The notes beneath the pieces were generated by a model, which was not told where the DNA came from, made no database searches, and was given only the letters and a program-made list of their open reading frames with translations. A DNA stretch of 64,000 nucleotides from an uncultured Acidobacteriota bacterium (GTDB taxonomy: Bacteria > Acidobacteriota > UBA6911 > RPQK01 > JAPXNP01), in contig CAVZRV010000011.1 of assembly GCA_963777605.1 (NCBI GenBank), forward strand, positions 15,269 to 79,268, written 5' to 3'. A program made the translations under genes and the position numbers. Below, in pieces: positions 31,336 through 35,372 of this stretch (the first letter of the stretch is position 1; the number at the start of each line of letters is the position of its first letter).

Positions 31336-32082
31336 GAATTCCGGGAGGATCGATCCGCTGCCGGCCAACGGTGCTGATGCAACCAGGCGCAGCTGTGACG
31401 GTCCACGGCCAAAGGTTTCGAACGCCGATGACGAGAAGCGTCTTGAGCTGACCCAGGAAGGCCTTGACGTGCCGGCCTCGAACGTAGACGCCGGGGCTGA
31501 AACGAAAGACCAGCGCCAGGCGCCGGCGATCCCGATGATCTCGAGACTGTCGATCACTGGGGCTTTGCGGTGGCAGCGGGTTCGCTGCAAAAGGATCGGT
31601 GTCCGGCCTCGACGAGCGCTCCGCAAATATGACCTCTGCTGACTCCTCATCGGCTCTCGTCGCAGAGCTCTCCCCGAGTAAGGTGCTGCATCTATCCCGC
31701 CATGGCGTCCGGCTCTGCCAGGCACGTCTGGATCGGCTTCGGGTTTCACCTTGCCTCGCAGGCTGACCGCCCGTGCCCGGCCTCACTGCCGGCGTTGTTC
31801 CTACCGCCGTCGGTTTACCTCCCGCTTCCTTCAGCTTCGCCTCACGGCTGCGCCTAGTGTTTGGCTAAGGTTGGTCCCATCACCTCCTTTGAGTACCTTT
31901 CAACTCAATGGATTCAGCCCATGTCGGGCACCCGAGGGCGGACGTCCTCGTCCGCCACGACGGTTTGGGCGCCAGGCTCACGACAGATGGCATCCCCACA
32001 ACGCGGACAGCGACGTCCGCGATCCAAATGAAGCTTCAAGTTAGAACGGATTCCACGTCTGCAGTGACGTTTATCTGCAGAA

Positions 32083-32646
32083 TCAGCCGTCAAGGATCTT
32101 CTTGAGTGTTCGGGGCCAGAGTTCCTGCGATTCGACACGGAAGGCTCGGTTGAACTTGCTCGAACAGTTTTCCCAGGCGATCGTCGCGGTCAGTTCGACA
32201 AGTTCATCATCAGAGAACTCGGCCCTTAAACGCTCGAAGAGTTCGTCTGACACCTCAAGACTTGTGTCGGTGATGCAGTCGGCGTATTCGAGCGCAAGCC
32301 TCTCGCGGATATTGTAGTGAGGACTCTGTGGGTAATTGGGAAGATCCAGGATTTTCTCCTTGCTGGCACCCATTTCGCTGCCGACGGCAGCGTTGATGTC
32401 CTGTCAGAAGACACAGCCATTGAGTGAAGCGACCCGTCGGTTCACCAGCGCTGTCAGACCGCCGTCCAGTAGTCCTGACGCAGCCAGCCCTCCCCACATT
32501 CCGAGGACAGCCTGGAAGATTGTTGGCCTGCGAGCATAGAGTTCATAGGGTTCGAGCGGCGCGCCCCACCGCACGGTCTGTTGATCGAATGTCTTAGCGA
32601 TTCGTTCCCCAACCTGCCCTTTCTCGAGTCCCTTGATTCTTGCCAT
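32083..32646 (-). CDS. AhpD/carboxymuconolactone-decarboxylase (COG2128-like) family protein with an in-frame TGA at the CxxC position. It is either a candidate selenoprotein (CxxU) or a nonsense pseudogene.
   Basis: Two adjacent same-frame ORFs are separated only by TGA (32404-32406). The joined text reads LVNRRVASLNGCVF[TGA]QDINAAVGSEMGASKEKILDL...RERLALEYADCITDTSLEVSDELFERLRAEFSDDELVELTATIAWENCSSKFNRAF, which is colinear with CMD-family proteins that have NGCxYCxDxH. Confidence 0.65.
32377..32391 (-). promoter_or_regulatory. Hairpin 12 nt downstream of the in-frame UGA (bacterial SECIS-like)
   Basis: The mRNA reads UGA CAGGACAUCAAC GCUGCC GUC GGCAGC GAAAUG. It forms a perfect 6-bp stem with an apical loop starting with G, 18 nt after the UGA. 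A possible lower CAU/AUG pairing flanks it. Confidence 0.4.
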
Positions 32647-32920
32647 TCCCCGATTGTGCACCGAACCCCGGCCCGAGCGAAAGAGTACCCATCCTCCAGG
32701 GACGGCATCCGTGCGGGTGACTGCCCCGGGGCCGGATCTCCGTGTAGTCCATTCTCGACCTGCTGTCCGGAGGATGGTCGGCTGAGCAGATTCTCGAAGA
32801 ATTCGACAAGCTCAACCCGGCCGCACCCTCCTGGACGGGTTTGCGAAACAATTCTCATCCCTGCGTTCCGTCCCCAGCACTTGATATTTCCCGGCCCGCA
32901 ATCGACACTGGTTGCCGATC

Positions 32921-35372
32921 ATGAGACGTTGGTTGAAGGTCGTTCTCGTTGTCGTTTCCGGGATCCTGGTCCTGTTTCTGGCTGCGGCGCTCTGGGCCTA
33001 CAGCCTGGTTTCGGGGAGCCTGCCTCAGTTGGAAGGCGAGGTCGAAATTGCAGGCTTGGCGGCCCCGGTGACTGTCGAGCGGGACCAACTCGGCATCCCT
33101 TCGATTCGTGGAGAGAATCCCGTCGATGTGGCCCGGGCCCTGGGATTTGTCCATGGGCAGGACCGCTTCTTCCAGATGGACCTGACCCGCCGGCAGGCGG
33201 CTGGCGAACTGGCGGAACTGATCGGTCCCGTGGTCGTCGAAAGCGATCTGGGCGAGCCGCTTCCACCAGTTTCGAAAACGCGCCCGGCGGGTAGTCGAAT
33301 CCATGCCGGCGGGGCAAAGGGAAATCGTCGATGCCTATGTTGAAGGCGTCAATTCCGGACTGGACGGACTCGACCACAAACCCTTCGAATACTACTTCCT
33401 TCAGGCGGATCCCAAACCATGGAATGCGGAGGACACCATTCTGACCCTGGTGGCAATGTTCTTCATGCTGAACGATGAGACCGGGATCCGGGAATCAGAC
33501 AGGGGAGTGCTTTACGACATCCTTCCAACCGAAATGGCCCGGTTCATCGCCCCGGAAGGAACCAGGTGGGATGCGCCGATCGTTGGGGATGCCTTTGTGT
33601 CCGATCACATCCCCGGCCCCGAGGTCTTCGATTCTCGCGATACTCTCCAGGGGCCGCAGGCAGGAGGAAGAGACCGCTCAGACGAATCTCGAGGTGACTC
33701 CGTATCCCCGGTTCCCTTCTGGTCTCAATTCCCGGACGAACTCCAGTCCCTCGTCGGATCCAACAACTGGTCCGTCGCCGGTTCGCGGACGAATGACGGA
33801 CGCGCCATCGTCGCCGATGACATGCACCTGGGGATTTCCGTCCCCAACACCTGGTACCGGGCGTTGCTTCAATGGAAGAGTGACGGTTCCGGGCAGGATG
33901 CGACAACGACGGTAGTCGGAGTGACGCTTCCCGGAATCCCGGCGGTCGTGGCGGGAAGCAACACTCACGTTGCCTGGGGATTCACCAATTCCACAGGCGA
34001 CTGGTCCGACCTGATCGTACTGGAAATCAACCCGGATCATCCGGACCAGTACCTGACCCCGGACGGATACAAGACTTTCGAAGTCGAGAAGGAGACGATT
34101 GACGTCAAGGGAGAAGAGCCCCGCACCCTGGAGATCCATCACACGATCTGGGGACCGGTGATTGACGAGGACCACCTCGGCCGGCCGAGAGCGCTTCGAT
34201 GGATCGCCCATGATCCCGAAGCGGTCAATCTCAACCGCATCGCGCTCTCCGGTGCGTCCAATATGGAGGAAGCCGTCGAAACGGCCAATCGCAGCGGGAT
34301 CCCTCCTCAGAATTTCGTCGTCGTCGATCGAAGCGGACGCACGGCCTGGACGATTGAAGGACGGATCCCGCGCAGAGTCGGGTTTGACGGCCAAGTGCCC
34401 GTCTCCTGGGCTGACGGGTCCCGGAAATGGGATGGCTATTACCCGCCGGAAGAGTATCCTCGAGTGATCGATCCGGCGTCCGGGGCCCTGTGGACCGCGA
34501 ATTCACGCGTGGTCAACGGAGAAATGCTGGAGAAGATTGGCCAGGGACTTTATGATCTGGGAGCCCGAACCCAGCAGATCCGCGACGACCTGTTCGCACA
34601 GGGGACGTTCTCCGAGCAGGACATGCTCAAGATCCAGCTGGACAACCGCGCCCTCCTCGTCTCGCCCGGTGGCGGGACTTGATCCTCCAACTCGTGGACG
34701 AGGAAGCGATTCAGGGGAACAGTGACCGAAGGGTTTTCAGAGACCTGGTCGAAAACAGCTGGTCTGGAAGGGCGTCGGTCGATTCGATCGGATACCCCCT
34801 GGTCCGCACTTTTCGGCTTATCACCGATGAAAAAGTCTTCGACTGGCTGACCGAATCCTGTAAGGCAGCCGATGAACGGTTCAGTCCGTCCGGATTTAAC
34901 CAGCGGGAACAGTCTCTCTGGCTGATGGTCACCAGAACGGCCGATCCACCTGCTCGACCCCAGCTACGAATCCTGGGAGCAATTCCTGCTCTCCGTTGTG
35001 GACGAGACGATCGCTCGCTACGGCGGTGTTTCGGAGCTTCCCAAAACCACCTGGGGAAAATTGAACACCGCTCGGATCCAGCACCCGCTCAGTCGCGCAG
35101 TTCCCTTCCTTTCGTCCTGGCTTGACATGCCGGCCGACCAACTGGCCGGCGACGGAAACATGCCCCGGGCACTGGGGCCCAACTGGGGTGCGTCCGAACG
35201 ATTCGCGGTTTCGCCAGGGCGCGAGGAAGAGGGCTATCTCCACATGCCGACCGGGCAGAGCGGACACCCCCTCTCACCCTACTACCGATCCAGCCACAGC
35301 GCCTGGGTCAAGGGTTTGCCCACCCCGTTTCTGCCCGGCAAGCCCGAGAAGGTGCTGACGTTGCGTCCGTGA
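32921..35372 (+). pseudogene. Penicillin/AHL acylase (Ntn hydrolase, penicillin amidase family), broken into four frames
   Basis: It starts MRRWLKVVLVVVSGILVLFLAAALW...GIPSIRGENPVDVARALGFVHGQDRFFQMD. The catalytic region is GSNNWSVAGSRTNDGRAIVADDMHL. The C-terminus reads GDGNMPRALGPNWGASERFAVSPG...HMPTGQSGHPLSPYY. Frame changes occur near 33225-33250, 34650-34665 and 34925-34940. Confidence 0.75.

Follow-up and report, generated by a model that had tools for sequence, protein, structure and literature searches.

An in-frame TGA at the redox motif of an AhpD-like gene from an uncultured Acidobacteriota bacterium very probably encodes selenocysteine

A 64,000-nucleotide stretch of DNA from an uncultured Acidobacteriota bacterium (contig CAVZRV010000011.1, positions 15,269 to 79,268, assembly GCA_963777605.1; hereafter the window) contains an AhpD/CMD-type gene that is interrupted by a TGA codon at its redox motif. 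The question raised by this locus is whether the TGA marks a gene killed by mutation, a codon that is read in some other way, an error of assembly, or a site of selenocysteine (Sec) insertion. The comparative evidence described below favours an intact, functional selenoprotein gene encoding a thiol/selenol oxidoreductase of the CMD/AhpD fold, of the YciW-related 'AhpD-like' CxxU family, and the probability of this reading was put at roughly 0.94.

The original prediction, which did not name the strand, had described two same-frame open reading frames (ORFs) split only by TGA 32404-32406. The coordinates were found to hold on the minus strand, where the ORFs 32404..32661 and 32083..32373 are joined in frame via TGA 32406..32404. 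Translation through this codon reproduced the joined protein that had been proposed (...ASLNGCVF-U-QDINAAVGSEMG...) and gave a frame reading ...RRVASLNGCVF-U-QDINAAVGSEMGASKEKILDL..., which runs up to a second TGA at 32085..32083, the terminal stop of the same gene. The UGA-spanning peptide predicted from this frame is ...NGCVF-U-QDINAAVGSEMGASK. A GTG at 32661 was considered as the start codon and rejected, since the alignment of homologues favours the ATG at 32646..32644 (minus strand), with which the MARI of the homologues aligns. The predicted selenoprotein coding sequence occupies 32083..32646 on the minus strand and comprises 187 codons including Sec81. The putative Sec codon (U81, 32404..32406) is the second position of a C78-V-F-U81 redox motif of the CxxU type, and the Cys78 codon (TGT, 32413..32415), at the first position, would supply the presumed resolving thiol; the C78 column was invariant in an alignment of 37 sequences. 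Besides the TGA, the window's copy carries no further lesions. Directly after the terminal TGA lies an inverted repeat (UCUGCAG-N10-CUGCAGA, 32058-32081, minus strand) without a U-run, which may form a hairpin at the end of the transcript.

The read-through protein was matched by the Pfam family PF02627 (CMD) with E=6.7e-10 and 39.3 bits, above the gathering cut-off of 23. Its best NCBIfam match was NF053654 (GroundWater_YciW, 'YciW-related (seleno)protein'; 262 bits, E = 2e-78), to which it aligned end to end (profile positions 1-178 of 179), the link to YciW being solely that of the NCBIfam name. The score is below the equivalog cut-off of 310 bits for this model, as were those of all Planctomycetota and Verrucomicrobiota sequences tested (248-290 bits), while a Pyrinomonadaceae sequence (L034, 343 bits) and a Cys-form homologue (L072, 325 bits) scored above it. 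Only members of the Pyrinomonadaceae type exceeded 310 bits. The scores below the cut-off therefore place the window gene in a sister clade inside a single family that bears Sec.

An AlphaFold2 model built from the 37-sequence alignment was all-helical (pLDDT 97.1, pTM 0.92), with the C78/U81 pair at the N terminus of the helix spanning residues 79-91 and C78 just before it. Foldseek matched the model to AhpD-core proteins and to Deinococcus radiodurans AhpD at TM 0.81-0.86 and to Bmp8 at TM 0.83. In profile alignments, C78/U81 fell exactly onto the CxxC of Atu0492, PA0269, and Bmp8, bearing out the earlier proposal that the stop sits where the second redox cysteine of the family belongs. The family motif quoted in support of that proposal, NGCxYCxDxH, is close to the NGCAFCVDMH of Atu0492 and the NGCAYCVNMH of PA0269. 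The histidine of the classical AhpD CxxCxxxH motif is absent from the window protein, which carries an asparagine in its place (C-V-F-U-Q-D-I-N); the same Asn replaces the His throughout the Sec clade, while Atu0492 and PA0269 have the His. The chemistry may therefore differ from that of classical AhpD. In the Mycobacterium tuberculosis AhpD protein it is the second motif cysteine, Cys133, that acts as the attacking nucleophile, which would place the Sec of the window protein where a low pKa and high nucleophilicity matter most.

The conservation of the TGA was assessed in a scan that used one genome per species and returned 49 homologous loci. The aligned codon was TGA in all 28 of the closest loci (52-77% identity), which come from at least six phyla and span Planctomycetota, Verrucomicrobiota, Acidobacteriota, Binatia, Chloroflexia, SAR324, and the Gamma- and Deltaproteobacteria. 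A near-invariant motif, NGC[VE]F-U-QDINAAVGS, surrounds the TGA in these loci, and the protein sequence is preserved both before and after it, the two halves lying at 52-77% identity. Cysteine occupies the Sec column in about 20 distant actinobacterial homologues (GCEWCLDFGS, CEYCIDLGS), and TGC is the codon at this place in two close homologues from metagenomes (56% identity). The alternation of Cys and Sec that had been proposed as a check on the gene is thus present, both among distant actinobacterial proteins and among close relatives. Taken with the hairpin data described further below, the comparative evidence against a chance origin is overwhelming.

The phyla are intermixed in a maximum-likelihood gene tree, and of 15 genomes from the window genome's own family only one had an ortholog; this patchy, cross-phylum distribution may be regarded as a mildly novel angle. 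The closest ortholog (L022, 77% identity) lies on a 4.5-kb contig (JAUVSF010000450.1) of a MAG that was labelled Acidobacteriota by its submitter and that a genome search assigned to the family of the window's genome. In the gene tree, this sequence and the window gene stand beside Planctomycetota sequences, a conflict that could reflect either a wrong label or wrong binning.

The neighbourhood of the gene was compared across loci. An all-against-all comparison of the ORFs flanking 29 loci revealed no conserved partner gene; the matches were confined to the gene's own shadow ORFs and to synteny among very close genomes. In the window, a penicillin-amidase gene (PF01804, 32912-35125, plus strand) is divergently transcribed from the selenoprotein gene. 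Between 29763 and 31749, both strands carry long ORFs that overlap one another (357, 361, 180, and 179 aa) and had no Pfam match.

One alternative interpretation concerns the enzyme and not the codon. It could be that the Sec clade comprises a selenol-dependent enzyme with other chemistry, for example a Bmp8-like reductive dehalogenase, and not a peroxiredoxin or peroxide reductase of the AhpD type. This idea is prompted by Bmp8 being the best full-length structural match, by the invariant Asn in place of the AhpD His, and by the clade keeping Sec almost always while being spread over many phyla without a conserved partner. Were it true, there would be a parallel to the Sec-dependent deiodinases. 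Nevertheless, other chemistry of this kind was considered improbable, and a dehalogenase function for the window protein in particular is pure speculation.

To return to the reading of the TGA as a Sec codon, a hairpin lies downstream of it within the coding region. The core of this putative SECIS element is CGCUGCC-GUC-GGCAGCG (32376..32392, minus strand), and it encodes N-A-A-V-G-S. When the U of the UGA is numbered nt 1, nt 15-21 pair with nt 25-31 to form the stem, leaving G22 U23 C24 as the loop. The hairpin GCUGCC-GUC-GGCAGC had originally been described as beginning 12 nt downstream of the stop. This is correct for the six inner pairs; an additional, seventh C-G pair was found outside them, so that the perfect hairpin of 7 bp with a 3-nt loop begins 11 nt after the UGA. 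The proposed spacing of 18 nt between the UGA and the loop G also held. The dG of the core hairpin was -11.3 kcal/mol. A spacer with a possible weak lower stem (32367..32403, minus strand) appeared in the minimum free energy fold of the region after the UGA, but the lower pairs differ across homologues and this stem is therefore regarded as tentative.

The geometry of bacterial SECIS elements on which the original prediction had relied was compared with the bSECIS model set out in a 2026 review (PMC13188914), and the window hairpin agreed with all of the rules quoted there. The apical loop has 3 nt (GUC) where 3-9 nt are allowed, and the upper stem has 7 bp where 4-16 bp are allowed. The model has a G at loop position 1 or 2 and, as a rule, a G or U after it; the window has G22 followed by U23. 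The spacing from UGA to loop is 18 nt, within the range of 16-37 nt, and the free energy of -11.3 kcal/mol lies below the limit of -7.5 kcal/mol (PMC13188914). Among 2000 TGA triplets of the window, a perfect hairpin of at least 7 bp in SECIS geometry followed only 12 (0.6%).

Considered as a single sequence, the fold was unexceptional. A 71-nt segment gave z = -1.43, and 21 of 200 shuffled sequences folded equally well; the stability is not significantly above that of shuffles and the single-sequence evidence is modest. A scan of 32000-32750 with the Rfam covariance models returned no SECIS family at E values up to 10; a CRISPR-DR match in the region (E = 2.1) was taken as chance. Note, however, that the bacterial SECIS models of Rfam are gene-specific, and the diversity of bacterial SECIS elements precludes a general model, so this negative result says little.

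The homologues gave clearer evidence of constraint on the RNA. All 29 sequences had the hairpin at an identical position, with standard pairs in 90.6% of the pair cells. The closing pair 15-31 was C-G in 23 sequences and U-A in five, with one mismatch, and none of 500 shuffles equalled the observed covariation score. On the maximum-likelihood tree, the U-A state requires four independent changes, each of which combines a silent change of AAC to AAT with an amino-acid change in the codon following the Ser. Codon choice in the stem was likewise restricted. For the first Ala of the stem, 28 of 29 sequences use GCT, a codon with a share of 15% at other sites of these genes, and for the Ser all 29 use AGY, against 35% at other sites; the naive probabilities, calculated with no phylogenetic correction, were 4e-22 for the Ala GCT and 6e-14 for the Ser AGY. 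Saturation of silent sites would be expected at such divergences. Because conserved codons overlap the stem, the protein and RNA constraints are partly confounded, but the alignment shows a hairpin under selection at the RNA level. The interpretation of the hairpin as a functional element was thus strengthened by its conserved placement, its frozen synonymous sites, and its covariation.

The sequences that encode Cys at the Sec column were also informative. No hairpin was found at the corresponding place in the distant Cys homologues. In the two close TGC homologues (L071 2001-2615 and L072 258-800) the inner stem is kept and the closing pair is lost in both, while the loop G22 is lost in one of them (AUG). 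Taken at face value, the hairpin in these relatives looks like a leftover, decaying SECIS element that followed a recent switch from Sec to Cys. Close TGC relatives in which the downstream sequence does not fold had been named in advance as the sign of a simple pseudogene; no such relatives were found, with the qualification that the two TGC relatives, which are rare, keep most of the hairpin. Their case also calls for caution, since the conserved peptide itself fixes part of the stem.

The machinery for Sec decoding was sought in the window's own genome (6.73 Mb, 53 contigs, 5.7% estimated contamination), its absence having been named beforehand as a further sign of a nonsense mutation. All four genes were present. 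The selC gene (tRNA-Sec) lies at C7:942802-942896 (70.5 bits) and was called by ARAGORN as tRNA-SeC with anticodon TCA. The selA gene is located on contig C10 (528 bits), a full-length selB on contig C29 (354 bits), and selD at C7:931111-932034 on the minus strand (L019 1423-2442; 363 bits). The selD gene itself carries one in-frame TGA, within the canonical motif KCAG-U-ASK (KCAGUASK), and this Sec-TGA is independent evidence that UGA is decoded as Sec in this organism. The selD and tRNA-Sec genes are about 10 kb apart, and selA and selB are on other contigs. A second candidate tRNA-Sec gene beside selA, detected as a weak RF01852 match, proved to be an ordinary tRNA-Leu(CAG), and the other tRNA-Sec-like matches were tRNA-Ser or tRNA-Leu. 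In other genomes with the Sec form of the gene, selA scored above the cut-off in 10 of the 10 tested; the genomes with the Cys form were mixed in this respect.

These data can be set against the possibility that a change of TGC or TGT to TGA killed an AhpD-like gene and that the hairpin is coincidental. Broken genes do occur in the vicinity: the penicillin-amidase gene is divided among ORFs in differing frames (32912..33343, 33303..34682, and probably 34679..35125), with frameshifts near 34680 and within the interval from about 33250 to 33315, and it represents either a pseudogene or indel errors of the assembly. The remark in the original prediction that the other lesions of the window are indels fits this gene, whose parts lie in two or more frames. 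Decay is seen within the family as well, in a Planctomycetota MAG ortholog (L027 2044-2574) that has kept the Sec-TGA and the hairpin and contains two in-frame TAA codons (SSK*GV, ADRI*IT); this is either a decaying copy or a poor-quality contig. A nonsense mutation would also sit comfortably with the unexceptional fold of the single sequence. Against it stand the recurrence of this TGA in 28 further genomes from different phyla, the strong conservation of the protein on either side of the codon, the otherwise undamaged copy in the window, the covariation and frozen synonymous sites of the hairpin, and the complete Sec machinery of the genome. Identities of 52-77% moreover exclude a single contaminant as the origin of the 28 loci. 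A nonsense pseudogene was therefore judged very unlikely.

A second possibility is that the UGA is read as something other than Sec, either through its reassignment to Trp or Gly or through near-cognate read-through with Trp or Cys. Some full-length JGI metagenome proteins (P0002-P0010) do show W at the Sec position, the TGA having been translated as a sense codon under an alternative code table. However, the window gene itself ends at TGA 32085..32083 and its homologues also end at TGA; TGA thus serves as an ordinary stop, in this gene included, which excludes a general reassignment. In TGA-free homologues the column alternates with Cys, and never with Trp or Gly. The genome also encodes SelB, a SelD of the Sec form, and a tRNA-Sec whose anticodon is TCA, and the conserved hairpin has SECIS geometry. 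The chance that the codon is read in one of these other ways is accordingly slight.

An error that turned a Cys codon into TGA in the source assembly alone might be suspected from a 53-contig assembly with 5.7% estimated contamination, but it is scarcely credible given that TGA stands at the same place in independent assemblies from 28 other samples and that a salt-marsh contig covering 32374-32450 differs at 32410 and 32419 and nowhere within 32404-32406. Contigs of other metagenomes cover the TGA site at about 86% identity. A search for the sequencing run of the source sample itself found none, the best runs sharing at most 16% of words and yielding short contigs from relatives.

For the selenoprotein gene favoured here, the following mechanism is envisaged. 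SelB, together with GTP and Sec-tRNA(Sec), would bind the hairpin at nt 15-31, with loop bases G22-U23, as the ribosome reaches UGA81. The SelB complex would then deliver Sec at UGA 32406..32404, in place of termination by release factor 2, and translation would proceed to the second UGA at 32085..32083, which lacks such an element and serves as the stop. In the folded protein, nucleophilic attack would most likely be made by Sec81, with Cys78 as its resolving partner, and the enzyme most likely cycles between the selenol/thiol form and a Cys78-Sec81 selenenylsulfide. Candidates for the oxidised partner include a peroxiredoxin, a hydroperoxide, or another disulfide or oxidised thiol.

Selenoproteins of this type have been described before. 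Zhang, Fomenko and Gladyshev (2005; PMC1088965) described CxxU selenoproteins of the AhpD-like (COG2128) and CMD-domain types from the Sargasso Sea, with 27 and four sequences, respectively, and the GOS data set contained 299 'AhpD-like 1' and 70 'AhpD-like 2' sequences (Zhang and Gladyshev 2008; PMC2398784). AhpD-like selenoproteins are also listed in the 2026 review (PMC13188914) and in BSepDB. The statement that AhpD-like proteins are among the known bacterial selenoprotein families is therefore correct (PMC1088965, PMC2398784), and with such proteins known since 2005 the present find is real but ordinary, and unsurprising to a specialist. It leaves knowledge of Sec decoding and of AhpD-like selenoproteins unchanged.

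Its value lies mainly in annotation. With standard gene calling, such a gene comes out as two separate ORFs or is labelled a pseudogene. Dozens of orphan C-terminal fragments, about 106 residues long (106-110) and beginning at the first Met after the TGA, are present in the protein databases, as is an N-terminal fragment that ends ...NGCVF. The selenoproteome of the organism would gain one selenoprotein besides SelD. The 29 sequences also give a clean and mildly novel example of a minimal bacterial SECIS element that constrains the peptide it encodes (QDINAAVGS).

The element and the protein may finally be compared with known systems. In the E. coli fdhF SECIS, numbered in the same way, the loop bases G23 and U24 are essential. 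The window element has a nearly identical geometry, with a stem-loop that directly follows the UGA within the coding sequence and an apical-loop G-U at nt 22-23 where fdhF has G23-U24. The window element is shorter and simpler, with a perfect stem of 6-7 bp and a loop of 3-5 nt, and it has no evident counterpart of the bulged U17 of fdhF.

At the family level, the likeness is to the NF053654 members above the cut-off, which share the same motif, the same hairpin, and the same gene tree. The difference is that the window clade falls below the cut-off of this curated model, which thus misses the clade and would not name the window protein automatically. With AhpD-type proteins (Atu0492, 2gmy; PA0269, 2ijc and 7xw1; D. 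radiodurans AhpD, 6k40) the window protein shares the all-helical fold (TM 0.7-0.86) and a redox pair at the same helix N terminus. It differs from them in having Sec for the second Cys, in the Asn for His of the Sec clade, and in that no AhpC partner gene is adjacent at the window locus. The debrominase Bmp8 (6ohi, 6ohj) belongs to the CMD family and works through the same pair of cysteines. It ranks first among the full-length structural matches (TM 0.83, E about 1e-6) and is also a profile match (E = 4e-21); however, identity to it is 18-19% and the window offers no bmp-like biosynthetic gene context.

Among published selenoproteins, the counterpart is the 'AhpD-like 1' family (COG2128; PMC1088965, PMC2398784). 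Both are of the AhpD/CMD type with a CxxU motif in which Sec is second, both have Cys-containing homologues and a small-loop SECIS element with the loop G just downstream of the UGA, and both come mainly from uncultured environmental bacteria. The likeness to this family was drawn from the CxxU motif and not from a COG2128 assignment. The published sets consist of marine plankton reads, whereas most sequences of the window clade derive from soil, sediment, and water MAGs of Planctomycetota, Verrucomicrobiota, and Acidobacteriota.
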